DNA of 64,000 bases from a virus (Duplodnaviria; Caudoviricetes), in the IMG/VR virus record IMGVR_UViG_3300032330_001742, positions 52,065 to 116,064 of that record. One strand, written 5' to 3'. Position 1 is the first letter of the stretch. The number at the start of each line of letters is the position of its first letter. The notes under the pieces were generated by a model that did no database searches, was not told where the DNA came from, and was given only the letters and a program-made list of their open reading frames with translations. Shown one piece after another: positions 11,686 to 55,789 of this stretch. The position numbers and the translations under genes were made by a program.

Positions 11686-11719
11686 TAAACAATGGTACCA
11701 CATCTGATATAATAATTCA

Positions 11720-12988: not shown

Positions 12989-13198
12989 TTATTCATCACG
13001 CTTCCAGTGCATGTATGACCTTATGTAAGTGGCTGCATAAGCCAAGGATGCAAAGATAAAACCATATTGACGGGTAGTTATGGCATAAACCATCCACAAA
13101 CACTCATTAAACAAGAGTACAAACCAACCCCATATGGTCTTACGACCAACAAAGAAGATTCCTGTAACCCCAATCAGGGCTAGTACCCATGACCACAT
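12989..13198 (-). CDS. Small membrane protein, PnuC-like
   Basis: Three hydrophobic helices, K..WGW, W..YAI...QYGF. Confidence 0.55.
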   Translation of the reverse strand: MWSWVLALIGVTGIFFVGRKTIWGWFVLLFNECLWMVYAITTRQYGFIFASLAYAATYIRSYMHWKRDE

Positions 13199-13625
13199 TT
13201 ACTTTGAAGAAGCCAAAGCCATAACTGCGTCACATGGACAAATGATAGATTCTGGTAGTTCATGAACCTTTGTTGTAATTACAATAGATGTCTTGCATTC
13301 TTCACACTTATATGTATTTTTCATATATCAATCATACCATAGTTACGATACTAAGCCAATAACAACGTGGTCTTTACAAACAAGAGACATAAAATAGTCT
13401 GGATCTTCTCCAACTAACTGTGTATAATCACCTGGCTTATCGCAATAGTGACACTTATCTTGGGGTCTATTTTCAATCATTATCTGATTATATCATACTA
13501 GACCTTATTTGTTATGTTCTTCTACCTTATCTTTAGGCACCCAAACTTTTTTACCATCTTTATATACAGGCCAATAACCTAATGAACGCCAGTCCATATT
13601 CATAATTTTTGGATCTTTTGGCATT

Positions 13626-14159
13626 TTACTCGTATACGTTAATAATAATATGAATGCGTGGCTCAGTGCCATCATTTCTTACACCATGATTACGCAAATT
13701 ATCAATTTCCCAAACTGAGTTAAGTGGCATATTGAACTCACCATCTTCAAACCTATAGAAAGCCTGATCATTTGTTAAAATAGGGAAGTGAACACGGTGA
13801 ATATTTTCTAAGAAATCTCCACCATCTTGATGCATTTGAATTCTATGACCAACCCCCAAACGAGCAACAAGTGCAACATATTCACGCATATTTGGAAATT
13901 TGTTCTTTAGATAGTCTAAGTATGGTTGAAGCACTTTTTCATATTTATCAAAAAGTGGCATATTTTCAATAGTGTCGTTTGTATATTTTTTTGAATGTCT
14001 AAGAACAATAGAGTCATAAGAGGACTTGCCGTAATTGTCTACCATAGACTTTCGGTAATCAAGAACTCCCCAGTCCTCTTCATCCATTACGCTCATGAAG
14101 TTGGCAGCAAATTCTGCTGGAACATCTTCCATTCTGATATAAGGTACGTCTAAATGCAT
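13626..14159 (-). CDS. Aspartyl/asparaginyl beta-hydroxylase-like 2OG oxygenase
   Basis: HQD.G...HRVHFPILTN...WEIDN...HGVRN.G...RIHII. Confidence 0.85.
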   Translation of the reverse strand: MHLDVPYIRMEDVPAEFAANFMSVMDEEDWGVLDYRKSMVDNYGKSSYDSIVLRHSKKYTNDTIENMPLFDKYEKVLQPYLDYLKNKFPNMREYVALVARLGVGHRIQMHQDGGDFLENIHRVHFPILTNDQAFYRFEDGEFNMPLNSVWEIDNLRNHGVRNDGTEPRIHIIINVYE

Positions 14160-14244
14160 TTTAATCCTCCATTAATTCTTTTATTATACAGCAAATTTAT
14201 AATATTCCCAATCAATATTATTAATGCTAAGCCAATCTAAATAA

Positions 14245-14610
14245 TTAACTATCATTGCTTAAGGCCCTTGCTTCTGCTTTTCGCATAAAGGTTCTGTGTC
14301 TATGGCAATTGGCACAAACTATCTCACATTTTGCTATCTCAGCATTAACTGAGTCTAGACCTCTGCCTTTAACTCCAGAAGATGATAGAGCAAAAGACTT
14401 CTCAAACTCTGGTAAGTGATCAAAATCCAAAACATGCGGGGGATAATCAATTCCACAATCAACACAGATAGGATTATTAGCCTTATGGTCAGACACATAC
14501 TTTCTAATCCAAGAGACCTTAGATTTTATATCAATTAATCTTGCTTCTTTATTGCGCTGATACCATAAGCGCTGAACACGATTACGCTCTTCTCTATTTT
14601 TAATAGGCAT
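14245..14610 (-). CDS. HNH-like zinc-binding endonuclease family protein
   Basis: CVDCG...LDFDHL...EIAKCEIVCANCHRHRT; paralogue of 890-1156. Confidence 0.75.
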   Translation of the reverse strand: MPIKNREERNRVQRLWYQRNKEARLIDIKSKVSWIRKYVSDHKANNPICVDCGIDYPPHVLDFDHLPEFEKSFALSSSGVKGRGLDSVNAEIAKCEIVCANCHRHRTFMRKAEARALSNDS

Positions 14611-14831
14611 TAATAACCACCCATACACTCATTTCTTGTATGATATAGCCTAATCTTATTCATAATCTTTTTGTTAGGAGCATAGAGTTCTTCTCCACAG
14701 CAAGGTGTAGTTAGATGCCATTCTTTAGCAAAGAAGTCATAGACAAAGCCTTTAGCATTAGCATACTTGTTGGCTACAAAAATCTCAAATGGATCTGGAA
14801 TCTCTAGATTGATCATTGAGGCGGTACACAT
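14610..14831 (-). CDS. Hypothetical protein
   Basis: 73-aa ORF coupled to neighbour. Confidence 0.55.
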   Translation of the reverse strand: MCTASMINLEIPDPFEIFVANKYANAKGFVYDFFAKEWHLTTPCCGEELYAPNKKIMNKIRLYHTRNECMGGY

Positions 14832-15386
14832 TCAGAACAAAATGCTACACCTGTTTTAGCAACACGAGCATTGACAGGATTAACATAGACAGCATCTGCT
14901 TTATCAATATGTCTGCGACATACATAACATTTAGTCATTGGTGCTCTTTCTTAATATGATTAGTTAGAGTATGGTGTGCAAAAGGTGACCTAACCTCAAT
15001 CTCACGTTTACAGTTAGGACAGATAACGATTCTAGTACTCAATGCTAAACCAGAACCATAGGAAGTCTATGCTGAACTGATATCGATCAATACGAAAGCC
15101 TAGACCAAAGCCTTTAGAGTAGCCAATATGAACCCATTTGCCTTTGATATCAAACTCTTTATTCATTGGAGTATTCGTAATCTAATAGGTACTTAATGCT
15201 GTTCAAAAGTGCGAGGGCAATGAATGCACTCTTCCAATAATTAATCTTATCATCCATAAACGATAGTCCAAGAGCCATACCTAGTATAAAAGGCGCTCCG
15301 TTAATAAGGGATCTATATATTTTAGTCATAATACAATTGTATCAGATAGGGTGGTTTGGGTCAAGTGTGTTATACTGAAAATGCAA

Positions 15387-15457
15387 TTCGGGTTCGTATA
15401 ATGGTAGTACTCCAGGTTCCGAACCTGATAACGATGGATCGTAACCATCACCCGAAG
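15387..15457 (+). tRNA. tRNA with CCG anticodon (nominal Arg), atypical body
   Basis: TTCGGGT/ACCCGAA acceptor, CAGG-TT CCG AA-CCTG, T arm GATGG-ATCGTAA-CCATC; own promoter TGTTATACT just upstream. Confidence 0.7.
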
Positions 15458-15655
15458 CAATCTTTAAAGTTCGGCGCAAAATAGAGTTACCAAACCTTTC
15501 TATGCCCTACAAGGGCACTATCGGTTAGTCTTCTCAGTTTTACGCTTTTTCAAGGGGTAAACAAAAAGATACAGTAAACTCTCTATAATCGCTATACTAC
15601 AAACACCTAGCATAAAGTAAATCCAATAGATATATAGAACCCATACATCTTTCAT

Positions 15656-15844
15656 TTATTTACATGCCAAACAATAGTATGGGCTACGAAGGTTATCCAC
15701 ATGTGTTTGTATTCTTTGAGAACATTTAGAGCATGTAGCCAAAACCATGTTTGGATCTTTTTCTGATATTTCTATAGTAAATTGTTTTGTATAGTAGATT
15801 TTTGTAGCATACCATGTTGCTGCCATAAGGATTAAAGTAATCAT
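15656..15844 (-). CDS. Small TM + zinc-ribbon protein
   Basis: N-terminal hydrophobic helix, CSKC...CLAC. Confidence 0.55.
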   Translation of the reverse strand: MITLILMAATWYATKIYYTKQFTIEISEKDPNMVLATCSKCSQRIQTHVDNLRSPYYCLACK

Positions 15845-15876
15845 ATATACATCATATCACATCAAAGTTAACAGGT

Positions 15877-15929
15877 TTATCCACAGTTTAATAGGCTCAA
15901 AAATGTTAGTTATCCACATGTTATCCACA
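15877..15929 (+). promoter_or_regulatory. Three perfect DnaA boxes (TTATCCACA), candidate origin
   Basis: Exact 9-mers at 15877, 15910, 15921 in a 450-bp non-coding region with an AT-rich tract. Confidence 0.7.
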
Positions 15930-16299
15930 TATAAATCTTACTGATTATTTAATTAGATAGTCTAGAAGTGGAGTGTTGTGGAGGATAGTGGAGCATTGAG
16001 CACTTTAAAGAGGGCGTTCGTAATCCCCGCTTTTTTCAAACCTCCATATCCAAACCTTATACCACATATCCAAACCTTTGTCAAACCTTTATATCTGCCA
16101 AATTGGGATGCATTATATATCAAACATTAGTGTTTGTCAACTTTGTTTTGACACAAAACATTATGACATCGTAAAGGATTTTTGGCAAATTTTGAGTTAA
16201 ATCGTAATAAATTTAATTAGATTGTTTTAAATTAAAATATATCAAACAAAATGTTTGAAAACAATTAAATACTATTGTTTGTCTATATAGGAGTGTTTG

Positions 16300-16578
16300 T
16301 TACTCTTCAAAGGATGATAGATTATCAAAGAGATCTATTGGTATCCCCTGGGAAAATTGGTATACCTCTGCGTATGCCTGGCCTAGCGCCTCGGCTGCGT
16401 CTGAGTCCTTGTAGTCTATGGCATCGGCCAGAAAATCGGGGGTAAAAGAAAAGAAACGATTGACTATAGGAACATGCTTCGTAATAGATACAAAACTATT
16501 CCACATAGAGTTAGAAAATGCTTCATATTCTTTTGGTTGTTGCTTTGCATAGTTTGCAAAGTGATGTCTTGGACTCAT
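16300..16578 (-). CDS. Hypothetical protein
   Basis: Leaderless start MSPRHH 6 nt after TGGTATAAT. Confidence 0.55.
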   Translation of the reverse strand: MSPRHHFANYAKQQPKEYEAFSNSMWNSFVSITKHVPIVNRFFSFTPDFLADAIDYKDSDAAEALGQAYAEVYQFSQGIPIDLFDNLSSFEE

Positions 16579-16701
16579 AAAATTATTATACCATTGTTTG
16601 ACAAATAGAAGGTTTGGCGATATAATCCATGGATCGTAATATGGGGATCGTAAAGGTCGGTTCGTAATCCTTTTTAGCCGAAGCCGAGCCGAAACAAGTA
16701 A

Positions 16702-16717
16702 GGGGGCTTTCGCCCCC
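16702..16717. terminator. GC hairpin GGGGGC-TTTC-GCCCCC
   Basis: Perfect stem just downstream of the minus-strand early gene run. Confidence 0.55.
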
Positions 16718-16722
16718 AAACC

Positions 16723-16980
16723 TTATCCTATTGAAAATATCTCATTCAATGTTTCAAACCCTTTATCCTCTAGGCTCATAGCCTCTAGCAATAGGTCAAA
16801 GGATTCATTGATATAAGCCTCAGCCACTACTGTAGACTTTACAATATCCTCATGAATAGCAAAAGCCAAAGACAATCCCAAATCATTATATTCCATATAG
16901 TCTGATAGTTCTGTTTCATCTTTGTATTGCATCCACAGATCAGATAGGATTTCACAACGCTTCTCAATACTTGTATTCAT
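16723..16980 (-). CDS. Hypothetical acidic protein
   Basis: SD GAGAG; MNTSIEKRCEILSDLW. Confidence 0.65.
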   Translation of the reverse strand: MNTSIEKRCEILSDLWMQYKDETELSDYMEYNDLGLSLAFAIHEDIVKSTVVAEAYINESFDLLLEAMSLEDKGFETLNEIFSIG

Positions 16981-17161
16981 TATGGCTCTCTTCCTTTTCA
17001 TACTGTGCTGACTCTGCTACAGTTATAAGTCTATTATACACGACAGTAGGTGATATCTTTGCCAAGTATCTACCCACCATTTCTATATCTAGTCTTAGGT
17101 CTGATAAGATATTATTTAGTTTAATTACCGCTTTTTCTTCCTCTGTTATTCTGTGTCTCAT
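16964..17161 (-). CDS. Hypothetical protein
   Basis: SD AGGAG; MRHRITEEEK. Confidence 0.6.
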   Translation of the reverse strand: MRHRITEEEKAVIKLNNILSDLRLDIEMVGRYLAKISPTVVYNRLITVAESAQYEKEESHNEYKY

Positions 17162-17234
17162 ACTACTCCTAACGCTCCAGTATATCAAAAATAGGAGGAA
17201 GGGGCAAGCCACCCAATAGCCTGCCCCATTCCTA

Positions 17235-17606
17235 TTAGACGCTGAGGAGAGACCCAGTATCCTCAGCCACAGTGGCATATGCCGCCACAAACTTATCCCA
17301 AGTAACAGGGACATTATCAGTAACAGTCTTATTAGTAAAGTCAATGACTACGGTTTGTTCACCTAGGTCATAGTTCTCACCATTAACTGCATAAATTCCA
17401 AACCCTGTCTCATCCAAAACATTATGTTGAATAAGATAACTAATCATCATACGGGTGCCATATGAAGAATCAGACCAACGTGGACGTGCATGCTGCAGGG
17501 CACCTGCAATGTCAGTCTCCCAGCCATCTTGGCCCCAATGGCTGTATAAGACAACGCTAGGACCTGACTCTGAGTCTTTAAATACAAAGTTAATACGTGC
17601 TCCCAT
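17235..17606 (-). CDS. Conserved phage hypothetical protein
   Basis: MGARINFVF...VVLYSHWG...RWSDSSYGTR. Confidence 0.7.
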   Translation of the reverse strand: MGARINFVFKDSESGPSVVLYSHWGQDGWETDIAGALQHARPRWSDSSYGTRMMISYLIQHNVLDETGFGIYAVNGENYDLGEQTVVIDFTNKTVTDNVPVTWDKFVAAYATVAEDTGSLLSV

Positions 17607-17607
17607 T

Positions 17608-17799
17608 TTATTCCTCTTCCTCTTCTTCTTGCTCTTCTACGGATTCTACTTCTATAGGATACCAGTCAATGGCGTATTCTTCAATGTCACCTTCAAGTTC
17701 TAACTGTCTTACTTGATCTTCAGCATCCATCTCATCAGGTGCTTCAATCTCAAACTCGTAGTGGGTTTCTCGTGTTGCAGTAACTGTATATCTAGGCAT
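17608..17799 (-). CDS. Small acidic hypothetical protein
   Basis: ORF in operon; FEIEA.DE.DAE pattern. Confidence 0.6.
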   Translation of the reverse strand: MPRYTVTATRETHYEFEIEAPDEMDAEDQVRQLELEGDIEEYAIDWYPIEVESVEEQEEEEEE

Positions 17800-35464: not shown

Positions 35465-36976
35465 ATGCTAAATTTATTTCAATGGGCATCAAAAGGAATG
35501 GTAGCAGTACCAAATCTATCGACATTGACAATTACTCAAGCACAAACACTACTTACTTCTTTAGGTCTTGGTTTTATAAACTCTGGTTCTTCATCAACAT
35601 ATAATATTAATTTAGATACAACTATTGCAACACAATCAATTTCTGCAAACACCCTTGTTGATTATGGAACAAATATTAGTTTTACTTATTATGCATACGT
35701 AACTCCAGTTCCTACCCCAACTCCTACCCCTACACCTACACCAACGCCTACACCAACGCCTACACCAACGCCTACACCAACGCCTACACCAACCCCAACC
35801 CCTACACCAACTCCAACACCTACACCAAATGGTGTTGAATATTACATAGGAACATCTGCTTGTGCTGGAACAAGTGGGCTTTATTACAGTAGCCCATCAG
35901 TTTCTGGCCCATATTATTCCTCATCAATTCCATCAGATACAAGTTCTTATTCTAATGCAGTTGTAACAAAAACAGTTTATAGATCAACATCTGCAGCAGC
36001 ATTAGAGGCAGCAAAAAATGTTGCATGTGAAAATGTAACGCCTACTCCTACCCCAACTCCTACACCTACACCTACCCCAACACCTACCCCAACACCTACC
36101 CCAACCCCTACCCCAACCCCTACACCTTCACTTCCAACATGTCCAGGAACTCAAACAAAAGCAACATCTTATACATGTAATGAATTAGGTTTGGTATATC
36201 TTGGAGGACCATCGGACTATCAGGTTGGTGTTGGATATCAATGTTGTGGTGGCGCAATTCCTACCCCAACTCCAACGCCTACCCCTACACCTACACCAAC
36301 GCCTACACCAACTCCTACACCAACACCTACACCAACTCCTACACCAACACCTACCCCAACACCTACCCCAACACCTACACCATATTCATTTACAACAACA
36401 GTATATGGAATTAGATGTATTTCTGGTGACACATTTATTAGAGTTTTGCCAGGGGATGGAACTATAAATGTAGATGAAAATAATGGTGTTATTACACTAA
36501 AGGACAAAGATGGTAACACCGTTGCAAAACAGGCTAAAGATATAGTTATTGGTGATGAAATCATGACCACATCTTATTCTGAAATTGATCAAAACTCTCC
36601 AGATTACGAAATGTTCAATTGGAGTTCTGATTCTTTGACCTTTATAGAAAATGCTAAAACAACAATTGTTGATATTCAAGAAGATAATAAGAATCAGATT
36701 GCATACTTTAATAATGATCAATCAGCAAAATTTACACTAGAGCATCCAATTTTAGTTAATAGAAAAATTAATAACATTGATGATTGGAAATTCTTGATGG
36801 TTGCAGAAATTGAAGTAGGAGATATAATTGTTAAGTACGATTCAGAACTGGGAGTTTATAATAATGTGGTCATTGAATCAATTGACTTAATTCCATATGC
36901 AGAAACAGTTTATACATTTAGTGCTGAGCCAGTAGATTTAATTATTGCTGGAGATATCATTACTCACAATAAGTAG
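35465..36976 (+). CDS. PASTA-like + Pro-Thr repeat + C-terminal Hint domain protein
   Basis: VPNL...A...L...GL N-terminus; three (PT)n tracts; Hint from C318 (CISGDT) with FT.EHPIL and terminal HN. Confidence 0.85.
35701..36382 (+). repeat. Three coding (Pro-Thr)n tracts
   Basis: CCN-ACN hexamer repeats at about 35701-35828, 36035-36127, 36260-36382 with synonymous variation. Confidence 0.9.
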
Positions 36977-45119: not shown

Positions 45120-46805
45120 ATGACAACAAGAATGCAACAGCGTAGAGGAACCTCTACACAATGGACTACAACAGACCCAGTACTTGCTGCTGGTGAAATT
45201 GGAGTAGAAACAGACACAAACCAATTTAAACTTGGTGATGGCGTGTCAACATGGAGCGATCTCTCATACTTTAAGAATCTTGATGACCTTGGAGCATCTC
45301 TTGATGATTATGTTCCACTATCATCAAAGGCTGCTGCAAATGGTGTAGCATCACTTGATTCTACAGGAAATATTCCTGCATCACAACTTGGTAACATTAT
45401 CGATGGTGCACCTGCAGCATACGATACACTTAAGGAAATTTCAGATATTCTTGGAGACAACGGAAGTCTTTCAGGAAGTATAATCACACATATTTCTGGA
45501 GTAGAGTCTGGTCTAGCAACACACTCACAACTAGATACAAACGTTCACGGAATTGCTTCAACAGCAGCACTTGCAACTAAGACATATTCTGATACAGCAG
45601 CATCTACTGCAGTGTCAACACACAACTCAGCAACAACTTCTGTACACGGAATTGCTGATACTTCAGCACTTGCAACAAAAGCATATGCTGATGGCAAGGT
45701 GTCAACACACGAAGCAGATACAACAGATATTCACGGAATTGCAGATACTTCACTTCTTGCAACAAAGTCTTATGCAGATGGAAAGGCTTCAGATGCACAA
45801 ACAGCAGCAACTGGTGCAGCCACAACAGCAATTGGAACACACAATTCTGCAACAACTTCTGTGCATGGTATTTCAAATACTGCAAACCTTGTGTACACAT
45901 CTGACTCAAGACTTTCAGATACACGTACACCAACAGATTCAACTGTTACAGCAGCAAAGATTGCAGCAGATGCAGTTACAACTGCCAAGATCCTTGATGC
46001 AAATGTTACAACATCAAAGATTAATGATGGAGCAGTTACAACTGCTAAGGTTGCAGACTCTGCAATTACATCAGCAAAAATTGCAGATGCAACAATTGTA
46101 GATGGAGATATTTCTTCATCAGCAGCAATTGCAACATCTAAGATCTCAGGTCTTGATACAGCACTTAGCGCAAAGGCCCCATTGGCTTCACCAGCACTAA
46201 CTGGTACACCAACAGCACCTACTGCTTCTGCTGGTACAGCAACAACTCAGATTGCAACTACTGCATTCGTAGGAACAGCAGTATCAAACCTTGTAGCATC
46301 AGCACCAGCAGCGCTTGACACTCTTAATGAGTTAGCAACTGCTCTTGGAAATGATGCTTCATTCTCAACAACAGTTACAAATGCTCTCGCTGCAAAAGCA
46401 CCACTTGCTTCACCTACATTTACAGGTACAGTAACATTGCCAGCAGCAGGAATTGTTTTCTCTGACGGAACTCAGTCAAAGGAAGGCGTACCATCACGTA
46501 CACCAATTGTTTCAAAGACAGCATCTTACACACTTTCAGCACTTACAGAGCGTGACTCAGTAATTGAAGTTAACTCTGCATCTGCAGTAACAATTACAGT
46601 ACCTACAAACTCAACAATTGCTTATCCAGTCGGAACATCTATTGATATTCTTCAAACTGGAGCGGGACAGATTACTGTCGCAGGAGCATCAGGAGTTACA
46701 GTTAACGCAACACCAGGTTTGAAGTTAAGAACACAATGGTCAGGAGCAACTCTATTCAAGAGAGCAACAGATACATGGGTTCTTTACGGAGACTTGTCAG
46801 CATAA
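45120..46805 (+). CDS. Tail fibre protein with Mtd_N-like domain
   Basis: Same N-terminus; H...TT.VHGIADT and VT.AKI.D repeats. Confidence 0.8.
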   Translation: MTTRMQQRRGTSTQWTTTDPVLAAGEIGVETDTNQFKLGDGVSTWSDLSYFKNLDDLGASLDDYVPLSSKAAANGVASLDSTGNIPASQLGNIIDGAPAAYDTLKEISDILGDNGSLSGSIITHISGVESGLATHSQLDTNVHGIASTAALATKTYSDTAASTAVSTHNSATTSVHGIADTSALATKAYADGKVSTHEADTTDIHGIADTSLLATKSYADGKASDAQTAATGAATTAIGTHNSATTSVHGISNTANLVYTSDSRLSDTRTPTDSTVTAAKIAADAVTTAKILDANVTTSKINDGAVTTAKVADSAITSAKIADATIVDGDISSSAAIATSKISGLDTALSAKAPLASPALTGTPTAPTASAGTATTQIATTAFVGTAVSNLVASAPAALDTLNELATALGNDASFSTTVTNALAAKAPLASPTFTGTVTLPAAGIVFSDGTQSKEGVPSRTPIVSKTASYTLSALTERDSVIEVNSASAVTITVPTNSTIAYPVGTSIDILQTGAGQITVAGASGVTVNATPGLKLRTQWSGATLFKRATDTWVLYGDLSA

Positions 46806-46838: not shown

Positions 46839-48227
46839 ATGGCAGTAAATAAGAAAATTGGTGGTCACGCACAAGGTGCTAATGACTTTTTGGCACCTTA
46901 TGCACCAACTATTGGAACAGCAACCAACGTTCCATCTGGAAGAGCATTTAATAATGGACGGGCTGATGTAACATTTACACCTGACGCTATAAATGCAGCA
47001 ACATCCTTTACTGTTACATCTTCTCCTGGAGGTTATACAGGAACTGGATCAGCATCTCCTATTACTGTTACTGGTCTTCAATCTAATACATCTTATACAT
47101 TTACTGTAACTGGAGCAAATGCTGCAGGAACATCTGCTGCATCTGCTGCATCTAATAGCATAACTGCTACTACAGTTCCAGATACAGTTGCTACTCCTTC
47201 AGTATCTACAGCAGCATCTGGAGATGCGACGGTCCCTCAGGGAACTGCTAATACTGCAACAGATACAGTTTCATGGTCAGCACCAGCAAATGGTGGATCA
47301 GCAATCACAAACTACCACTGGACTTCGTCTGATGGAAAGTCTGGAGATACAGGTTCTACATCTATCACTGTTGCTCAAGAATCAGGAACAGGACAAACAT
47401 ATTCTGTTTATGCAACCAATACTAATGGAAATGGTGGAACTGGTACATCTGGTTCAATTACATCAGCATTCTCATTTACACCATTCTCAGTATTTGGATT
47501 CTCTCCGTTCTCAGTATTTGGATTCTCACCGTTTGGTGTATTCGGATTCTCACCATTTGGCTTCTCACCATTTGGAGTGTTTGGCTTCTCACCATTTGGA
47601 GTGTTTGGCTTCTCACCATTTGGATTCTCTCCATACGGATTCTCAACAACAGTATACGGAATTCGTTGTATTGATGGAGAAACATTTATTAGAGTTAAGT
47701 CAGGACAAGGAACAGAATCAGTTGATTCCGAAACTGGCAAGGTAACACTTAAAAACTCCGCAGGAGAAGTTGTTGCTAAAAAGGCTAAGGATATTGTTGT
47801 AGGAGATACAGTTCTGTCAGCAAGCATTACAGAAATTGATCCAGCATCACCAGACTACGAAGTATTTACATGGAAGTCAGATTCTTTAACATTTGTTGAA
47901 GATACTGAGACAACAATTGTAGATATTGAAGAACAGTCAAAGATTCAGGCTATTTATTTTAATGGAGATGAGTCCTCACAGTTTACTCTTGAGCACCCTA
48001 TCTTGGTTAAGAAAACAGTTGATGGCGTTTCAGAATATGCATTCTCAATGGTTGCAGAAATTGAAATTGGAAACTCAATTCTAAAGTATAATCCATCTAC
48101 TGACTCATACGATGAAACTGTTATTAACAGCATTGATATTAGTTCTGGAGAAAAGACAGTTTATACATTCAGCGCAGAGCCACACGATCTTATCATCGCT
48201 GGCGATATTATTACTCACAATAAGTAA
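46839..48227 (+). CDS. FN3 domains + FGFSP repeats + C-terminal Hint domain protein
   Basis: VTGL...TSYTFTV...N..G.S and WSAP.NGGS.IT.Y; F(G/S)FSP units; Hint from C277 (CIDGET) ending HN. Confidence 0.85.
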   Translation: MAVNKKIGGHAQGANDFLAPYAPTIGTATNVPSGRAFNNGRADVTFTPDAINAATSFTVTSSPGGYTGTGSASPITVTGLQSNTSYTFTVTGANAAGTSAASAASNSITATTVPDTVATPSVSTAASGDATVPQGTANTATDTVSWSAPANGGSAITNYHWTSSDGKSGDTGSTSITVAQESGTGQTYSVYATNTNGNGGTGTSGSITSAFSFTPFSVFGFSPFSVFGFSPFGVFGFSPFGFSPFGVFGFSPFGVFGFSPFGFSPYGFSTTVYGIRCIDGETFIRVKSGQGTESVDSETGKVTLKNSAGEVVAKKAKDIVVGDTVLSASITEIDPASPDYEVFTWKSDSLTFVEDTETTIVDIEEQSKIQAIYFNGDESSQFTLEHPILVKKTVDGVSEYAFSMVAEIEIGNSILKYNPSTDSYDETVINSIDISSGEKTVYTFSAEPHDLIIAGDIITHNK

Positions 48228-48232
48228 TAAAA

Positions 48233-48904
48233 ATGCGTGGAGATAAACATCCAAAAGCATCTGAATTTTGGCTAAGTACATATGCCATGTCGTTTGCTGA
48301 AATTGTAAACAAAAGCAACTGTAATAGAAACTTTGTTGAATATCAGTATGTGATTGGAAATCCAGATCTTTCTAATTCAATTATAAAACCAGTAAATGAC
48401 TATGCCTATAATCTTTATAAGGCTCCAGAACTAATTAAATATGAAGATGGTTATGTGTTTTTAAGACAAAAAACACATGCTGAAATATGGGTTAAAAGAG
48501 ATTATAAACAAGGTTTTTATTTTTTAGATCGCCCACACATTAGGCAGTTTTATACATCTGACACCATATTTAAAGCAGAAAATACATTCATGATGCCATA
48601 TAGATTTTATGTTCCTTGGTTTATTGATAATGGATCAGAGTTTGAAGTATTACAGGTAAATGATGAGTATTCTCCATTTGTTATAAAAGAAAACTTATAT
48701 GATCCAATTAATACCAACTCAACAATAATTGAGCCTGCTTTTGTTCATTTTTTATTTAAAAAAACTGGGGAGCACATGCTAAATCCAAGTCATGGTAAAA
48801 TTAGTATAGGAACTCCTATGTTTGATATAAAGATAAAGATGGATAAAAGAGAGTTTGTCCAACTAAATGATTTTTATAAAAAGTATAAGTTTTCTAAATT
48901 TTAA
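48233..48904 (+). CDS. Hypothetical protein
   Basis: 223-aa ORF; I..GTPMF motif shared with next two genes. Confidence 0.6.
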   Translation: MRGDKHPKASEFWLSTYAMSFAEIVNKSNCNRNFVEYQYVIGNPDLSNSIIKPVNDYAYNLYKAPELIKYEDGYVFLRQKTHAEIWVKRDYKQGFYFLDRPHIRQFYTSDTIFKAENTFMMPYRFYVPWFIDNGSEFEVLQVNDEYSPFVIKENLYDPINTNSTIIEPAFVHFLFKKTGEHMLNPSHGKISIGTPMFDIKIKMDKREFVQLNDFYKKYKFSKF

Positions 48905-48914
48905 AGGAGAAAAA

Positions 48915-49634
48915 GTGCCAATAATTGAATTTCATCCATGGAGTGATGATACAGAAGGTCTTATAGATAAGCCAACACCAACACATAGAAACGTACCAGA
49001 ATGGTACCGTAAACAACCTGCATATGTCAATAAAGATGAATTTTTGAAGAAGGGTGTTTCTGGATCTACAATTAAGAAGTGCATGCCAGTGTTTGATGCA
49101 ATGACTGCTGGATATACTTTATATTGCCCTGTTGATATATATGTTGACGCAACAAATCCTGCAAAACTTGAATATAATATTCCAGTAGCAGTTGCAGGCC
49201 TAAAGAAAGAACTATTTACTACACATTCTCCAGAACAAATTACTCACTATCCTATGTCACCAAATACACACAAAGATGTATTGAGAATTAATCCTATGTG
49301 GTCAATAAAAACTTCAGATGGCTACAGCACATTATTTACAAAGCCAATGCATCAAGAGCACTATCCTTTTGAAATTGTTCCTGGAGTAATAGATACAGAC
49401 TCTTACATGAGTGAAGGATTTTTATCTTTTAAAATTGATAATACTTTTAAGGGTATTATTGAAAAAGGAACTCCAATTGCACAGTTGATTCCATTTAAAA
49501 GAGAGTCTTGGGAAAGCAAGCATATCGATTACTCAGACTCTAAAACCTTTCAAAGAAAACAAAGAATGCTTATTCGTAGTAAATTCTTTAATTATTATAA
49601 AAAGAACTTTTGGCATAAAAAGGTATGGAATTGA
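48915..49634 (+). CDS. Beta-barrel protein (DUF6065-like)
   Basis: P.WYR...TIKKCMP..DAMTAGY...PG.IDTD...KGTP..Q.IPFKRE.W; GTG after AAGGAG. Confidence 0.65.
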   Translation: MPIIEFHPWSDDTEGLIDKPTPTHRNVPEWYRKQPAYVNKDEFLKKGVSGSTIKKCMPVFDAMTAGYTLYCPVDIYVDATNPAKLEYNIPVAVAGLKKELFTTHSPEQITHYPMSPNTHKDVLRINPMWSIKTSDGYSTLFTKPMHQEHYPFEIVPGVIDTDSYMSEGFLSFKIDNTFKGIIEKGTPIAQLIPFKRESWESKHIDYSDSKTFQRKQRMLIRSKFFNYYKKNFWHKKVWN

Positions 49635-50362
49635 TAAATAAAATAAAGTTTCATCCTACATCTTTAGAGATGTATGATAATTTTGATATATTGCATCCAG
49701 AGCCAGCAATTAAAAATATTCCAGAATGGTATAAAGATCTTGCACAGCACTATGATACCAATGACGTTGAGTTTTTAAACCCTGTAAATGATCGTGGAAC
49801 AGATGGTGCAAATGTTTCAACAAAAATGTGTTATCCTTTTAGAGATGCAATGACAGCGGGTTATGTATATAAACTTACTCAGGATATTCATGTATCTTTA
49901 GATCCAGATGGTAAGCCTCACCTTTCTTGGGAACTAGATAATTTAATGATGCTAGATAAAAGATATATTTTAGATATGGTTCCACCAGAAGGCTGTCATC
50001 CAGTTCATTTTGGCTTAAGAATGCATTGGTACTATGAGACGCCACCAGGCTACTCAGTGTTGATTACACACCCAATGAATCGCTATGACTTGCCATTTGT
50101 TATACCTTCTGGTATTATTGAATCAGATTTAATGGGAATTCCAGTATTTTTGTCATTATTTTTAAAGAAAAATTTTATTGGAACCATACCAAAAGGCACT
50201 CCAATGTTTCAAATTTTTCCTTTTAAGAGAGAAGACTGGGAAATGGAAGTTAGCCTAGATGCAAAAGAAATATTAAAAAAAGAGTATGAGTTAGAAAATA
50301 GAAGAACTAGGCTTTTTGCATATTATAAAAAATTTGCATGGAGAAAGAAAAATTACCTATAG
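49625..50362 (+). CDS. Paralogue of 48915-49634
   Basis: PEWYK...KMC.PF.DAMTAGY...TPPGYS...KGTP..Q.FPFKRE.W. Confidence 0.65.
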   Translation: MELINKIKFHPTSLEMYDNFDILHPEPAIKNIPEWYKDLAQHYDTNDVEFLNPVNDRGTDGANVSTKMCYPFRDAMTAGYVYKLTQDIHVSLDPDGKPHLSWELDNLMMLDKRYILDMVPPEGCHPVHFGLRMHWYYETPPGYSVLITHPMNRYDLPFVIPSGIIESDLMGIPVFLSLFLKKNFIGTIPKGTPMFQIFPFKREDWEMEVSLDAKEILKKEYELENRRTRLFAYYKKFAWRKKNYL

Positions 50363-50391
50363 TGTATAATAGAAAGAAAAAGGGAGCAGTT

Positions 50392-51015
50392 ATGAAAGAC
50401 CATAAATTCTTTGAAAGAATGCTAGACACAGATACAGATCGTCTTGCATTTTATTTAAGCAGACAATATGAAAATATTCAAAATTTAACTTTGCCAGGTA
50501 TTAAAGAAGTGGGCAAACAAGAAATTTGGACAGAGTCTGGAAGTTTATCTACAGTAAAATGGAGAGAGTATAACGTCTTTCAGTTTTTAAATCCAGATAT
50601 TCATAAGTTGTATAAAACTCTTGCAGAAGTAATGCGTGAAGCGTGTGACTACTATGAGATTAACTTTGACGAACAAGAATATATGGTTCAAGGCTGGTTT
50701 AATATTAATCACAAGAAGGCTGGCAAATTAGACTGGCATGACCATGGTGGTCCATATGCCCCACATTTTCATGGATACTATTGTGTTAAGGCTGAGCCAT
50801 CTACAACTCATTACAGACTATTTGGTGATCCAAACAGAGAAGTTGAAAACAAAAACATTGATAATAGAATGATTGTGTCTGAAATGGGTCATCCACATGC
50901 ACAAGCAGACTGGGATTGGGAAGGTCCAAGAATTACAATCGCATATGATATTGTTCCTCTTAAATCTCTTGCACAAGCACGTCAATCAGAACAGCATTGG
51001 ATTCCATTATGCTAA
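50392..51015 (+). CDS. 2OG-Fe(II) oxygenase-like protein
   Basis: GWFN..., WHDH, FHGYYCV.AEPS, GHPH, RITIAYD. Confidence 0.7.
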   Translation: MKDHKFFERMLDTDTDRLAFYLSRQYENIQNLTLPGIKEVGKQEIWTESGSLSTVKWREYNVFQFLNPDIHKLYKTLAEVMREACDYYEINFDEQEYMVQGWFNINHKKAGKLDWHDHGGPYAPHFHGYYCVKAEPSTTHYRLFGDPNREVENKNIDNRMIVSEMGHPHAQADWDWEGPRITIAYDIVPLKSLAQARQSEQHWIPLC

Positions 51016-51638
51016 AAGAACATAAATTTTTTGATAGGTTCTTGCAAAATGATCTAGTTTCTTTATCAAAATTTTTGCAAGAAAAAATGCATGGTTTTGA
51101 AAATGGAACAATTCCAAACGTAACTAAAGAAGATTTTGATTCTTTAGATAATAGATCTCCAGCAACTAATTTGGGTCCAAAATACAATATATTTCAGTTC
51201 CATGATGAATCTATTTTTAATATTTACCGTGCAGTTTCAGAAATGACAAAAGAAGCCTGTGAGTATTATGGCGTTAACTTTAATGATCAGTACTATATGA
51301 TTCAAGGTTGGTTTAATTTTGACAAATATGAAAAGCCAGATCCTCTGCCAGATGATTTCTTGCATGACCACCTTGGAGGAGAGGGTGCTCCAGATTTTCA
51401 CGGTTACTATTGTGTAAATGCAGAACCATCCAATACATATTATAAGATAGGTGGCATTGACGGGGTAAGGTTTACAAATGTAAATAGAAACAACCGTGCA
51501 GTGTTATCAGAAACAGGACATCCACACGGAATTCAAAGTTGGACACAAGATCATTTTAGAATTACTATTGCGTACGATGTAACTCCACTTAGTAAAATTA
51601 GAACAGCACAGGAGCAACATTGGATACCACTAATATAA
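51009..51638 (+). CDS. 2OG-Fe(II) oxygenase-like protein (paralogue)
   Basis: HDH, FHGYYCVNAEPS, GHPH, RITIAYD. Confidence 0.7.
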   Translation: MLKEHKFFDRFLQNDLVSLSKFLQEKMHGFENGTIPNVTKEDFDSLDNRSPATNLGPKYNIFQFHDESIFNIYRAVSEMTKEACEYYGVNFNDQYYMIQGWFNFDKYEKPDPLPDDFLHDHLGGEGAPDFHGYYCVNAEPSNTYYKIGGIDGVRFTNVNRNNRAVLSETGHPHGIQSWTQDHFRITIAYDVTPLSKIRTAQEQHWIPLI

Positions 51639-52489
51639 AAAATATTCTTGTAAATATTTATTCTTATAAAGAAAAAGATCTAATTTCTTTTATTGACTCT
51701 TTGATTGAAAAAAGTTCTAAAAATAATAATATTTATTTTTATATTAATGATCAAAATAACTTAACAAGATTAAGAAAATTTGTTGGGTATAAAAATGTTT
51801 TTTATAATGTAATCTGGTGGGATGAATTACAAAGTCCAAACTATCATATTGCAAAAACAATAGATGAAAACTCAGCAGGAAATTATGATTATGCATTAAT
51901 CATTAAGAGAAGTATTGGGATGCCACAAAATTGGGACCAGGACTTAATAAGTAATTTACCAGAAAACTCTGTTTTATCTGGCATGGGTACCGTAAATCCA
52001 AAAATTAAAAACAATTTTTATATAGATAAAAATATTGGAATAAGCAATACAATAACAAAAACATCTTATGCTGATTCATCTTTTATGTTTGGTAAGTATT
52101 CAGATATTCTTAAAATTGAAAAACCATTATTTATAAAATATTATGGTGAAGATGAATACATCTCAATGTCCTTGTTGAATCAAAAAATTGATATATTGTC
52201 TCTTCCTTCTGGCTATTATACGTATCAAACACCAGAACTTCACAAGCGTGGCTATGTGCCATTTTCATTGCATCATAACTATAATGAGGTAATTAGACTA
52301 CTTCTTGGCAAATCAACTACTAAAATAAAGCCAATATCTCCAAATCAATTTATAGAGTCAAATAATTTAGTTTTGGACGGTCTAAATGAATTACCATTTG
52401 ACTTTAATGATATTGAGTATGATAGATCTTCTCCTTTAGATAATATTGGTGGTAAAAGATATATAGATACATTAAATGAGGTATCATGA
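51620..52489 (+). CDS. Divergent GlcNAc-transferase-like protein
   Basis: ILVNIYSYKEKDL, NWD..L, YYGEDE echo 37547; DSH motif absent. Confidence 0.55.
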   Translation: MDTTNIKNILVNIYSYKEKDLISFIDSLIEKSSKNNNIYFYINDQNNLTRLRKFVGYKNVFYNVIWWDELQSPNYHIAKTIDENSAGNYDYALIIKRSIGMPQNWDQDLISNLPENSVLSGMGTVNPKIKNNFYIDKNIGISNTITKTSYADSSFMFGKYSDILKIEKPLFIKYYGEDEYISMSLLNQKIDILSLPSGYYTYQTPELHKRGYVPFSLHHNYNEVIRLLLGKSTTKIKPISPNQFIESNNLVLDGLNELPFDFNDIEYDRSSPLDNIGGKRYIDTLNEVS

Positions 52490-53139
52490 GTCATAAAATA
52501 TTTGATCGTCATCTATCAATCAATCTAGTTGAATTAACTGAGTATTTAGATTTAAAGCATGATGAGATTCTTTCAAATACAATGAAAGAAGAAAACTATA
52601 TAACAGATCTAATGGTAAAAAGATATACTAGAGAGCACAACCTACCATCTAAACTTAATAAAAAATATAATGTTTTTAAATTTGATAATAGTTTAATTAA
52701 AGAGTTTTATGATGGTGTAAAAGATTGCTTTATGGAAGTTTGCGAGTTTTACAATATTGATTTTAATGATCAAAATTATATGATACGTGGTTGGTTTAAT
52801 TATGATAAAACAAGCAAGAATGGTTTTTCCGTTGATCCAAGAACAAATCCTAGATATTTCCATGATCACTTAGGTGGACATGGTGTTCCAGATTTTCATG
52901 GATACTATTGTGTTAATGCAGAACCTTCAAAAACTTTTTATAAAATGAAAGATGATTCAATATATGAAAATGAAAATAAAAACAATAGGCTTGTAATATG
53001 TTCAAATGGTTTTCCACATGGAAGAGATGACTGGTACTTTGATTCACCAAGAATTACAATTGCCTATGACATTGTTCCATTTAGCAGATTAGTTGCAGAG
53101 CAAGTAGATTCAAATAGTAATTGGTTAAAGTTTTCTTAA
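52486..53139 (+). CDS. 2OG-Fe(II) oxygenase-like protein (paralogue)
   Basis: HDH, FHGYYCVNAEPS, FPH, RITIAYD. Confidence 0.7.
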   Translation: MSHKIFDRHLSINLVELTEYLDLKHDEILSNTMKEENYITDLMVKRYTREHNLPSKLNKKYNVFKFDNSLIKEFYDGVKDCFMEVCEFYNIDFNDQNYMIRGWFNYDKTSKNGFSVDPRTNPRYFHDHLGGHGVPDFHGYYCVNAEPSKTFYKMKDDSIYENENKNNRLVICSNGFPHGRDDWYFDSPRITIAYDIVPFSRLVAEQVDSNSNWLKFS

Positions 53140-53227
53140 CAGTAAAGTAATGCTTTAGGTAAGAGTTTTGCTTTTTACAAAACTCTGCTATAATTAGGTC
53201 TATTCCGTTTTTGAAAGGACGATACAC

Positions 53228-55258
53228 ATGTCAGATTTTTTTAGTTTTAAACTTCCAGAAGATTTTGTAGAGAAGTACTCTTTTGCCCCTAATCCATTTG
53301 GATTTAAAGATGCAGCAGAAAACTCTCTTGGAGAAATTACTTTTATTCGCACATATTCTCGTGTGAAGGAGGATGGAACTAAGGAACGCTGGCATGAAGT
53401 TTGTCGTCGTGTAATTGAGGGTATGTACTCAGTACAGAAAAATCATGCTAAAGAAAATCGTCTTCCATGGAATGACTACAAGGCTCAAAAGTCAGCACAA
53501 GAAGCATTCCAAAGAATGTTTGAACTTAAGTGGACACCACCAGGCAGAGGAATGTGGACATTTGGAACAGCCATGACAATGGAAAAGAAAAACTCTGCAG
53601 CACTTCAAAATTGTGCAATGGTTTCTACCAAGGACCTTGATAAAAATGATCCAGGAGCACTGTTTGCGTGGGTTATGGATGCACTTATGCTTGGTATTGG
53701 TGTAGGCTTTGATACTGTAGGACAGGAAAAGAATTTTCAGATCTATGCCCCTACAGAACCAGCAGCGATCTTCGATATACCAGACACTCGTGAAGGTTGG
53801 GTAGAGTCAGTACGTATTTTGCTAAATTCTTACCTTCGTGCGAATCAGCCAATTCAAAAGTTTAACTATGACCTTATCCGTCCTCTAGGAGCACCAATTA
53901 AGGGCTTTGGTGGGGTCGCTAGCGGTCCAGCGCCACTGATTCAACTACATACACAGATAGACAAAGTAATCGGCGGTAGGGCAGGAGAAACCCTAGACAG
54001 CCGTGCCATTACAGATATTATTAACCTTATTGGAACCTGTGTAGTTTCAGGAAACGTTCGTCGCTCTGCAACACTTGCTTTAGGTGCAGGAGGAGATGAA
54101 GATTTTATTAATCTTAAGAATGCAGAAGTGTTCCCAGATAGAAACTCATTTGATCCAAAAAACCCAGGATGGGCATGGATGTCAAACAACTCAATTTCTG
54201 CAACAGTCGGAATGGACTATGAAAAGTACACCGATCTGATTGTTAATAACGGAGAGCCAGGTTTTATCTGGCTTGATGTTGCTCGTAACTATGGTCGTCT
54301 AGCAGATCCTGCAGATGGAAAAGACTATCGTGTTATGGGCTTCAATCCTTGTGCGGAGCAGCCATTGGAGTCGTACGAACTTTGTACTCTTGTAGAAGTT
54401 CACTTAAACCGACATGAATCCAAGGAGGACTTCCTCAAGACATTGAAGTTTGCTTACCTTTATGGTAAGACTGTTACATTGCTTCCAACACATTGGCAAC
54501 AGACAAACGGTATCATGCAACGCAACCGTCGAATTGGTACATCACTTACAGGTATTGCTTCATTTGCTGATCAAAAAGGCCTTCCTATTGTTCGTGAATG
54601 GATGGACGAAGGATACAACACAATCCGTAAGTATGACCGTCAATACTCAGAATGGCTTTGTGTTCGTGAATCAATTCGTGTAACAACTGTTAAGCCATCA
54701 GGGTCTGTATCAATTCTTTCTGGTGCAACCCCTGGAGTTCACTGGGGTCCTGGAGGAAATTTCTTCCTTCGTGCAATTCGTTTTGGAGATACAGATCCAA
54801 TGCTTCATTTGTTTAAAGCAGCAGGTTACAAGATTGAAAAGGATATTGTATCAGCAAATACCCAGGTAGTATACTTCCCTGTAAAATCTGGACATCCTCG
54901 CTCTGAAAAAGATGTAACACTATTTGAGAAGATTGCCCTTGCAGCAACTGCTCAAAAGTACTGGTCTGATAATGGTGTTTCTGTAACACTTTCATTTGAC
55001 AAGGAAACAGAGTCAAAGCATGTTGCCCCAGCACTTCATATGTACGAGGGACAGTTGAAGGCAGTTTCATTCCTTCCAATGGGAAATACTGTTTATCCTC
55101 AGCAACCTTATACACAGATTACTGAAGAAGAGTATGAATCATATGTTGGAGTTCTGAAGCATATTGATTTTAGTGCTATTTACGATGGCAATGAAAATCT
55201 AGAAGCAATGGGTGAGGCATATTGCACAACAGACTACTGTGAAATAAAGGTAAACTAA
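53228..55258 (+). CDS. nrdJ: Class II (B12-dependent) ribonucleotide reductase
   Basis: RTYSR, PPGRG, LQNC, GNVRRSA, NPCAEQ.L..YELC, TVKPSG, C-terminal C..DYC. Confidence 0.93.
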   Translation: MSDFFSFKLPEDFVEKYSFAPNPFGFKDAAENSLGEITFIRTYSRVKEDGTKERWHEVCRRVIEGMYSVQKNHAKENRLPWNDYKAQKSAQEAFQRMFELKWTPPGRGMWTFGTAMTMEKKNSAALQNCAMVSTKDLDKNDPGALFAWVMDALMLGIGVGFDTVGQEKNFQIYAPTEPAAIFDIPDTREGWVESVRILLNSYLRANQPIQKFNYDLIRPLGAPIKGFGGVASGPAPLIQLHTQIDKVIGGRAGETLDSRAITDIINLIGTCVVSGNVRRSATLALGAGGDEDFINLKNAEVFPDRNSFDPKNPGWAWMSNNSISATVGMDYEKYTDLIVNNGEPGFIWLDVARNYGRLADPADGKDYRVMGFNPCAEQPLESYELCTLVEVHLNRHESKEDFLKTLKFAYLYGKTVTLLPTHWQQTNGIMQRNRRIGTSLTGIASFADQKGLPIVREWMDEGYNTIRKYDRQYSEWLCVRESIRVTTVKPSGSVSILSGATPGVHWGPGGNFFLRAIRFGDTDPMLHLFKAAGYKIEKDIVSANTQVVYFPVKSGHPRSEKDVTLFEKIALAATAQKYWSDNGVSVTLSFDKETESKHVAPALHMYEGQLKAVSFLPMGNTVYPQQPYTQITEEEYESYVGVLKHIDFSAIYDGNENLEAMGEAYCTTDYCEIKVN

Positions 55259-55789
55259 ATGGAGGATTACGTGTCACAAATACATCATATTGAAAATTTT
55301 ATGGATCCAGCAGATGCTGAGATAATCCATCAACATTCTGTTAGGTTTGATAATAGTTTTAATATGCATGGGAATAATGAAAAAGAGTTTAAAGTTTATA
55401 CATATCACGAAATTGAAGCCAATGAAAAGCCAGTTTTAGATATGATGCAAGAATATGCTCTTAAGGTTTATAACCATGTTTTAAAAACTTATGGAGGACC
55501 TTTTGAAGAGTTTAATCCTCACAAAACACATATTGCAAGGTTTGAAGAGGGACATGGCATGCATGACCATTTTGACTCTTCAAGACCAAACGATATTGCA
55601 ACATTAGTATATTTAAATGATAACTATGAGGGTGGAGAAATTTATTTCCCAGATTACAACATTTCTATTAAGCCAAAACCTGGAGACTTGCTTTGTTTTC
55701 CAGATCAGCCAAGATTTGTTCATGGAGTTAAGCCAATTATAAAAGGAACAAGATATACAACACCACGCTGGTTTACTCGCATAGTGTGA
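55259..55789 (+). CDS. 2OG-Fe(II) oxygenase (P4H-like)
   Basis: HFD...YLNDNYEGGE...HGV....GTRY. Confidence 0.88.
   Translation: MEDYVSQIHHIENFMDPADAEIIHQHSVRFDNSFNMHGNNEKEFKVYTYHEIEANEKPVLDMMQEYALKVYNHVLKTYGGPFEEFNPHKTHIARFEEGHGMHDHFDSSRPNDIATLVYLNDNYEGGEIYFPDYNISIKPKPGDLLCFPDQPRFVHGVKPIIKGTRYTTPRWFTRIV

Follow-up and report, generated by a model that had tools for sequence, protein, structure and literature searches.

The DNA analyzed here, referred to as the window, is the 64,000-nucleotide right-hand end of a 116,064-bp uncultured phage record (IMGVR_UViG_3300032330_001742) that is rated 100% complete. Our subject is the region from 46839 to 53139 of the window, which closes a run of fiber-like genes and in which a gene for a protein with an FN3 domain, a Phe-rich repeat, and a C-terminal Hint domain (the FN3 protein) is followed by seven genes, called hyp223, D65a, D65b, HDH1, HDH2, GT289, and HDH3; the features of this region and its flanking genes lie on the + strand. 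Open reading frame (ORF), repeat, and Hint analyses placed the repeat, the Hint domain, and the downstream genes where they had first been noted. The original prediction had treated the seven genes as one unit of putative tailoring enzymes. Instead, we found that they are a composite and not one repeat-specific cassette: D65 goes with fiber genes generally, and in sister phages the other genes lie in a block that is 40 to 60 kb away. The reading that we favor, with a probability of about 0.5, is that the FN3 protein would be a tail-module appendage with a conserved FN3 N-terminal part and a fast-evolving C-terminal end, that D65a would be its partner, and that the remaining genes would form a relocatable block of accessory enzymes.

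The tie between D65 and fiber genes was seen in 80 loci that were fetched with a D65 homolog alone, from which 53 distinct loci had enough upstream DNA. At 48 of these 53 loci, an FN3, Gly-rich, or tail fiber ORF ended within 2.6 kb upstream of D65, irrespective of the tail that this partner carried. Among FN3-selected loci with Gly-rich tails, D65 was found in 10 of 25, and in haloviruses HF1 and HF2 it stood at the end of the tail module. The usual order in phages of approximately 39 kb was c11, an FN3/Gly_rich_2 protein, c3, and D65, with no ribonucleotide reductase (RNR) gene nearby. D65 had been considered as a nucleotide metabolism gene, as it adjoins RNR in this phage and in HF2, and this assignment was dropped because D65 follows fiber genes in the ~39-kb phages without RNR.

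Loci L161 to L240 (for example, L166, positions 5773 to 11674) contained a module of a ~100-amino-acid (aa) protein, an FN3/Gly_rich_2 fiber protein, a protein of ~60 to 130 aa, and D65, to which a GT2 glycosyltransferase and a protein of ~750 aa were added in some cases; these ~39-kb contigs are unrelated to the window phage. HF1, HF2, and about 45 haloarchaeal myovirus relatives encode a D65 homolog with about 31% identity (E value of 1e-27), and in HF2 (L001, record positions 48119 to 49003) the homolog lies between the tail module and RNR, as in this phage.

The two D65 genes of the locus appear to have different histories. In a tree obtained by a quick search, with support from the Shimodaira-Hasegawa-like approximate likelihood ratio test (SH-aLRT) only, D65a fell into a "resident" clade with the single D65 found behind the FN3 gene of related phages (SH-aLRT of 96), and D65b fell into a "block" clade with the D65 copies that accompany hyp223, HDH, and GT289 (SH-aLRT of 96 to 97). 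The position of the enzyme block changes without regard to that of the repeat protein gene. Loci collected with the HDH profile often had the order hyp223-D65-HDH-GT289-2OG without an FN3 gene nearby, and the flanks of such distant blocks were a proteasome-like gene and a putatively secreted ~300-aa protein, together with carbamoyltransferase, GDSL, and CHAP genes. In block-bearing sister genomes of ~110 kb, the FN3-aromatic-Hint gene and a single D65 were roughly 40 to 60 kb from the block, and in G006, whose FN3 N terminus is the nearest to that of the window (85%), two HDH genes and GT289 were located about 50 kb from the FN3 gene. Several sister genomes kept HDH though their tails were pure FGA, without Pro, Ser, or Thr. 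In the complete 116-kb genome, HDH and D65 occur nowhere else than at this locus, with three and two copies, respectively.

The sister-phage blocks were preceded by genes for a 174-aa proteasome-like (Ntn) protein and the ~300-aa protein, as in L122 (2260 to 3927) and L129 (3830 to 5496). By eye, the N terminus of the ~300-aa protein resembles a signal peptide, and further upstream there was a protein of 570 to 660 aa with long Pro/Glu/Thr linkers.

The FN3 protein, its repeat, and its Hint domain

The FN3 protein (462 aa) is encoded by a single uninterrupted ORF (46839 to 48227) and lies directly 3′ of a tail fiber gene (45120 to 46805) that matched 45 PHROG families, mostly tail fiber, with a best E value of 2e-30. 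Pfam detected one FN3 domain, at residues 44 to 105 (46968 to 47153; E value of 1.2e-7, 32 bits against a cutoff of 25), and a second one is probable by eye at about residues 115 to 205. The repeat occupies residues 211 to 270 (47469 to 47648), as determined by Tandem Repeats Finder (periods of 15, 24, 39, and 63; highest score, 199) and translation. It consists of eight F-x-F-[ST]-P units, namely, one FSFTP and seven copies of FGFSP, interspersed with five F[SG]V spacers, and of a degenerate ninth unit, YGFST, and is followed by the junction TVYGIR (47649 to 47666). Phe makes up 33% of the repeat segment versus 7% of the whole protein. The seven FGFSP units differed at four nucleotide positions, all four of them third-codon and synonymous, and three of the units were identical in DNA. 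Since the unit DNA is nearly identical and the differences are only synonymous, the array is young, with its peptide conserved. An Atlas search using the repeat alone gave no usable match.

A scan of viral contigs with the FN3 protein yielded 79 related loci, many of them on fragments, where the absence of a gene is weak evidence. Across these loci, the N-terminal ~200 residues were conserved (40 to 85% identity) and the C-terminal part was highly variable: the tails consisted of FGFSP/FGFTP units, long (FGA)n, PFFPPFF, FSVFGF, YSFVP, or Gly-rich domains of 250 to 400 residues, and they ended in a Cys-type Hint domain, in a homologous Ser-type domain, or without Hint. A homolog of the tail fiber gene preceded the FN3 gene in 56 of the 79 loci. 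Judged by such comparisons, the family behaves as a host interaction module of the tail region, and from the position of its gene the protein would be expected in the virion. DNA and protein searches of cultured phage genomes gave no match to the FN3 protein or to the whole locus; among cultured phages, only D65 of this locus was matched, in haloviruses and one cyanophage. In the sister-phage locus L244 (1501 to 3279), two FGA arrays of the FN3 protein are separated by three inserted Cys-rich modules, which are joined by Pro-Thr/Ala linkers, and a Ser-type Hint-like domain follows.

The Hint domain (47667 to 48224) forms the last 186 residues of the protein and is 59% identical over 197 aa to the C terminus of another protein of the window, the PT protein (35465 to 36976). 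The cassette layout had been proposed to mirror that of the PT protein, and this echo was borne out. The first Hint residue, Cys277, comes after a conserved Y-G-I-R; in the PT paralog and in L002, L003, and L006, Y-G-[IV]-[RK] likewise precedes Cys. Of the 15 homologs in the alignment, 6 have Cys and 7 have Ser at this position. The block B motif TxxH is present as T383-L-E-H386, with the His kept in 13 of the 15 aligned domains, and the C-terminal H460-N461 is followed by Lys and a stop codon, as it is in the PT paralog, L002, L003, and L006. The Ser-type relatives end in F-D and not in H-N. When a profile of the 15 Hint domains was compared with the PDB, the best six matches were all inteins or a bacterial intein-like (BIL) domain (E values of 0.006 to 0.4). 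The window copy matched Intein_splicing at E values of 0.004 to 0.06 (13.6 to 17.3 bits), under the cutoff of 35.8, and some family members matched Intein_splicing (best E value of 7e-6), Hint_2, PT-HINT, and Hint. The Hint assignment thus rests on similarity that is weak but convergent, that is, on weak profile matches together with all three motif positions.

A canonical splicing intein would have Cys, Ser, or Thr at position +1, but here this position is Lys462, after which comes the stop codon. Cleavage is expected rather than splicing, because there is no usable +1 nucleophile. By its motifs, the domain would form a thioester at Cys277 and cleave itself after Arg276. Hint would then be a cap that can be removed from a sticky, hydrophobic (FGFSP/FGV)n tail, and the freed tail may self-associate or adhere to the host envelope. 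The thioester could alternatively pass the protein to another nucleophile. Both Hint domains of the window finish with His-Asn (48222 to 48227 and 36971 to 36976), a single Lys, and a stop codon. This one-Lys "C-extein" is conserved in those Cys-type relatives whose His-Asn end is retained, and simple N-terminal cleavage would not require the Lys, whose conservation may leave room for odder Hint chemistry.

Predicted folds of the downstream proteins

D65a (48867 to 49634) and D65b (49625 to 50362) both matched phrog_7084 (E values of 4e-49 and 2e-34, respectively). They had been called two DUF6065-like paralogs. Their matches to DUF6065 (PF19541; 16.9 and 13.5 bits) are below the Pfam cutoff of 26.6, and the predicted fold is that of a dUTPase, with no obvious peptide-tailoring fold. 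A paralogous family in the PFFPP-type loci passes the DUF6065 cutoff (94 bits) and aligns with D65. An AlphaFold (AF2) model of D65a built from 49 homologs had a pLDDT of 89. Foldseek placed dUTPases on top (E value of 1.5e-4; TM scores, by target, of 0.64 to 0.71), and VIA-align gave 11 dUTPases at Z scores of 8 to 10.4. The top 22 VIA-align rows were dUTPases or dCTP deaminases without exception, and the best unrelated protein had a Z score of only 4.5. Thus, according to the model and both searches, D65a and D65b have a dUTPase beta-barrel fold.

The sequence motifs of dUTPases are only partly kept in D65. Motif 3 (G-I/V-I/V-D-T/S-D) has D176 in 36 of the 49 homologs and motif 4 (..A-Q..) has Q206 in 40 of 49, whereas there is no Asp at position 84, the sequence at motif 2 is S-x-L-x-x-x-P-x-H/N, and motif 5 is absent. 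Compared with the dUTPase motifs, D65 also lacks the motif 1 Asp and the motif 2 and 4 arginines. These missing parts are the phosphate-handling parts of dUTPases, and for this reason we do not class D65 as a dUTPase. The invariant residues of D65 are W46, C72, G82, P203, P209, and Y244. A D65 profile found no match among PDB sequences at E values up to 1, and PF00692 (dUTPase) matched nothing in the complete genome, the D65 genes included. We consider D65a more likely to be a trimeric assembly or ligand-binding partner associated with the fiber than a nucleotide hydrolase.

The gene hyp223 (48233 to 48904), previously listed as hypothetical, can now be annotated as a probable remote and degenerate relative of the D65 family. 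It aligned to this family in hhalign with a 50% probability and an E value of 1.6e-4 over 107 columns, including a GTP-x-x-Q-like motif, and had no Pfam or PHROG match.

HDH1 (50338 to 51015), HDH2 (50997 to 51638), and HDH3 (52486 to 53139) are paralogs that share the same invariant residues, with HDH2 and HDH3 being 43% and 38% identical to HDH1, respectively. They had been described as HDH/HPH oxygenase paralogs, and the AF2 model and Foldseek agree in predicting a 2-oxoglutarate (2OG) oxygenase fold. The HDH1 model is a double-stranded beta-helix (DSBH) with a pLDDT of 85.5 and a pTM of 0.85. Foldseek returned 158 PDB matches at E values of <1e-3, and nearly all of those listed were 2OG oxygenases or related DSBH/cupin proteins. 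The best structural matches were the uncharacterized marine proteins 3bvc and 2rg4 (TM scores of 0.62 to 0.68), which we presume to be PF13759 members. The next matches were prolyl hydroxylases, namely, Pseudomonas putida prolyl 4-hydroxylase (P4H), Dictyostelium PhyA (6t8m), and PHD2. Among 19 HDH members, H134, H136, H145, H187, R198, and T200 were invariant. The first motif, H134-[D/E]-H136, has His in place of the usual Asp/Glu of HxD/E, H187 is at the canonical 53-residue spacing of an iron triad, and R198-I-T200, 11 residues past H187, corresponds to the R-x-T that binds the C5 carboxylate of 2OG.

None of the 19 HDH members matched any Pfam oxygenase model at E values up to 1, where only noise was returned, and the HDH profile likewise found no PDB sequence at E values up to 1. 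The hhalign comparison of HDH with the two other oxygenase-like genes of the window showed no relationship. In language-model look-alike clusters of HDH, PF13759 was found in 79 to 90% of members. The HDH family comprises at least 1,304 members, mostly on metagenome contigs of up to phage size, and none of the 120 listed was named or Pfam annotated. Residues 1 to 17 of HDH1 (window positions 50338 to 50389) were unaligned and disordered in the model, and since family members begin near a conserved HKFF, the true start may be Met18 (50389).

GT289 (51620 to 52489) had been proposed to be a divergent N-acetylglucosamine transferase, and profile comparison upholds it as a remote GT60/PF11397 relative. 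The GT289 family profile aligned to the PF11397/GT60 protein of the window with an hhalign probability of 93% (E value of 3.7e-7; 227 columns), PF11397 was matched by 6 of 26 family members, and 5 of 33 homologs bore a precomputed PF11397 label. The GT289 of the window alone matched PF11397 over only 40 residues (E value of 0.016), and the family profile had no match among PDB sequences at E values up to 1. Its metal site is degenerate, with IKRS where GT60 has TDSH. The four closest relatives also lack the Asp, and more distant relatives keep one (GDD, GDG, DGA, or SDN). The activity of GT289 in this phage is doubtful, because the Asp of DxD/DxH has been lost.

The seven genes run in one direction and overlap or abut each other. 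No terminator-like site was found on the + strand between the genes, the sole + strand site falling inside GT289, and a promoter and terminator scan of the region gave nothing beyond the shuffled expectation. A class II RNR gene (53228 to 55258; Pfam RNR_Alpha, E value of 2e-30; RNR-II_ins_dom, E value of 9e-15) is the conserved right-hand border of a variable island, with 81 to 96% identity in 23 related loci. The gene content between FN3 and RNR was highly variable across related loci. RNR is followed by a PF13640 (P4H-type) 2OG-Fe(II) oxygenase gene (55259 to 55789; Pfam 2OG-FeII_Oxy_3, E value of 2.8e-12), a gene for a protein of 1,254 aa, and genes for the portal and the prohead protease. 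The G+C content changes from ~0.41 in the fiber and FN3 genes to ~0.32 in the seven downstream genes (48000 to 54000). This drop may be mere composition, because the fiber genes are rich in Gly, Ala, and Thr.

Repeat type, neighboring enzymes, and rival explanations

Several observations weigh against our reading of the locus and point to a link between the repeat and its neighbors. Among the distinct FN3-selected loci, HDH adjoined all eight FN3 genes with FxF[ST]P or FSVFGF tails and none of the 21 with FGA, PFFPP, or YSFVP tails. At 8 of the 11 loci with PFFPP tails, three to seven PF13640 (P4H-type) oxygenase genes lay next door. On a tree of the FN3 N terminus (90 proteins), the repeat class changed six times and HDH adjacency seven times, and in three to four of five independent pairs the two changed in the same direction, with no pair in the opposite direction. 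Oxygenase-like and GT60-family genes follow both Hint proteins in this phage (sister phages have one distant island), a pattern that fits enzymes placed next to their substrates. The lack of a canonical dUTPase in the genome also counts against us, in that it leaves room for a nucleotide role of D65, which we regard as unlikely.

The original prediction had named covariation of the repeat with the downstream enzyme families as a check, and such covariation was supported in part: HDH adjacency does track Ser/Thr-bearing Phe repeats, but the sign test gave a P value of 0.125 (five pairs are too few for it to attain 0.05), and linkage is a possible cause. Because the tail is physically linked to the genes behind it, a single recombination event alters both, and the ends of fiber genes are usual places for inserted genes. 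The 2 × 2 table of HDH adjacency and Ser/Thr-bearing Phe repeats for the 90 proteins (36, 50, 2, and 2) is inflated, since the second locus set was chosen on HDH. L004 and L008 had five to seven FxF[ST]P units and no adjacent HDH, and the FGA-tailed loci had no adjacent PF13640 oxygenase genes. The PFFPP loci also carried a true DUF6065 gene and often a short-chain dehydrogenase gene. In L017 to L036, L066, and L080 (for example, L020, positions 10886 to 17678), which have PFFPPFF tails, three to seven PF13640 paralogs stood in a row between the FN3 gene and RNR, together with the DUF6065 gene, D65, and the short-chain dehydrogenase gene; L030 also had two sulfotransferase genes.

The explanation closest to the original prediction is that the downstream enzymes modify the FGFSP repeat, with HDH1 to HDH3 hydroxylating Pro or Phe and a sugar then being added, to give a self-assembling aromatic fiber segment exposed by Hint. 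We consider this rather unlikely as a whole, and somewhat unlikely that the FGFSP repeat is a substrate of the block at all. The covariation (counted as 3.7 of the 5 pairs, 0 opposite), the three to seven P4H-type genes beside PFFPP tails, the nearness of the HDH fold to prolyl hydroxylases (after the two uncharacterized proteins), the GT60 family membership of GT289, and the apparent translational coupling of the genes, with no intergenic + strand terminator-like site, are all consistent with it. It is weakened by the P value of 0.125, the HDH-selected locus set, and the linkage of tail and genes, and further by the block being retained 40 to 60 kb away in genomes with pure FGA tails, by L004 and L008 lacking an adjacent HDH despite their FxF[ST]P units, by the loss of the metal-motif Asp in the GT289 clade of the window, and by D65 not being repeat specific. 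A wider version would have phage oxygenases hydroxylate the Phe-rich repeat, with glycosylation too in some lineages, the oxygenase family tracking the repeat chemistry (HDH with F-x-F-[ST]-P, P4H-type with PFFPP, and none with FGA) and Hint exposing the tail or transferring it covalently; we hold this version to be doubtful. In the reading that we prefer, the block of hyp223, D65b, HDH1 to HDH3, and GT289 would supply accessory enzymes for tailoring of the hydroxylation/glycosylation type, directed at virion linkers or envelope glycans.

The block might also act away from the virion, on host envelope glycans or peptidoglycan (in superinfection exclusion, receptor masking, or lysis control) or on a small molecule, its place behind the fiber genes being merely a position that tolerates insertions. 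The setting of the sister-phage block, between the putatively secreted ~300-aa protein and the carbamoyltransferase, GDSL hydrolase, and CHAP endolysin genes, agrees with such a role, as do the sulfotransferases and short-chain dehydrogenases in related islands and the variable gene content from FN3 to RNR. We nevertheless judge it improbable, since it explains the covariation with repeat type only by linkage. Still less probable, to a degree that we give it little weight, is a nucleotide or DNA modification module in which the dUTPase-fold proteins, RNR, the oxygenases, and the transferase make or decorate a modified base. D65 has the dUTPase fold in a genome without a canonical dUTPase, its gene is next to RNR in haloviruses HF1 and HF2 as well as in about 20 of the related loci, and 2OG176 weakly matched Tet_JBP (E value of 0.005). 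However, D65 follows fiber genes with no RNR nearby in the ~39-kb phages, its phosphate-binding motifs are missing, and the structural neighbors of HDH are protein hydroxylases and PF13759-type proteins, not TET/JBP.

The original prediction also offered the repeat as a multicore precursor of the kind that yields ribosomally synthesized and posttranslationally modified peptides (RiPPs), released by Hint and matured by the downstream enzymes. Short peptide repetition beside oxygenase-like genes is all that speaks for this idea, and we scarcely credit it. The repeat belongs to the C-terminal part of an FN3 tail-module protein of 462 aa, Hint cleavage would free the Hint domain and not single units, homologs have Gly-rich domains in place of the repeat, and Pfam and PHROG searches found no maturase, protease, cyclase, recognition element, or exporter family in the seven genes.

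Relation to known systems and significance

The Hint domain resembles those of the BIL/Hedgehog type in its N-terminal Cys (Ser in relatives), its TxxH motif, its terminal His-Asn, and its seat in a hypervariable protein of extracellular type, and the BIL domain 2lwy was among the best PDB profile matches. It differs in lying at the very C terminus of a tail-module protein, directly after an aromatic repeat, with a C-extein of one Lys, and in having similarity under the Pfam cutoffs and activity that is predicted. The C-terminal intramolecular chaperones of phage tailspikes and fibers (Peptidase_S74 type) self-cleave via a Ser-Lys dyad. Like them, the Hint domain is located at the C terminus of a fiber-type protein and would be expected to release itself once folding or assembly is complete, but the fold and chemistry, here a predicted Hint thioester, are unrelated. 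The repeat recalls the FG repeats of nucleoporins, in which Phe-Gly recurs in a low-complexity segment, suggesting cohesive multivalent hydrophobic contacts. This likeness is compositional only; the spacing is 3 to 5 residues, there are no long hydrophilic spacers, and the context is viral and extracellular.

For the enzyme block, the closest parallel is the Skp1 pathway (the P4H PhyA plus Gnt1, GT60), which shares with this locus a gene of the 2OG oxygenase fold beside a GT60/PF11397 gene and a repeat protein bearing Pro, Ser, or Thr. HDH differs in having no Pfam oxygenase match and an H-[DE]-H motif, GT289 lacks the Asp of DxD/DxH, and modification is putative here. The PF13759 (2OG-FeII_Oxy_5) oxygenases of aquatic phages are language-model look-alikes of HDH, but HDH itself has no Pfam match. 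Glycosyltransferase genes of mycobacteriophages are tied to capsid glycosylation in the account of PMC11256854; compared with virion O-glycosylation in those phages, the repeat of the window is Phe rich and not Pro-Thr. D65 shares with trimeric dUTPases the beta-barrel fold (Z score of about 10) and partly kept motifs 3 and 4, and the nonenzymatic herpesvirus dUTPase-related proteins pp71 and ORF10 were also in the VIA-align list of D65. It differs from dUTPases in lacking the motif 5 arm and the motif 2 and 4 arginines, in having extra N- and C-terminal elements, and in its gene being in a fiber module and not among nucleotide metabolism genes.

The components are of known kinds, namely, Hint/BIL autoprocessing domains, 2OG oxygenases, GT-A transferases, and the dUTPase fold. 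Their combination, with FG-type repeats and Hint on a phage tail protein, a fiber-tied family of the dUTPase fold, and oxygenases tracking repeat chemistry, appears to be undescribed; among the papers searched, none mentioned DUF6065, none described this tip design, and none joined FG repeats with phage tail fibers. Phage fiber tips decide host range, and in this uncultured phage group one appendage has its tip remodeled by aromatic repeats of low complexity and by a predicted self-cleaving Hint cap. The models and profiles also provide the first fold-level annotation of three large unnamed phage families, DUF6065/phrog_7084, HDH, and the GT60 offshoot. If it is true that the repeat is a substrate of the oxygenases, the virion chemistry would be of a new kind, a posttranslational modification system without a described counterpart.

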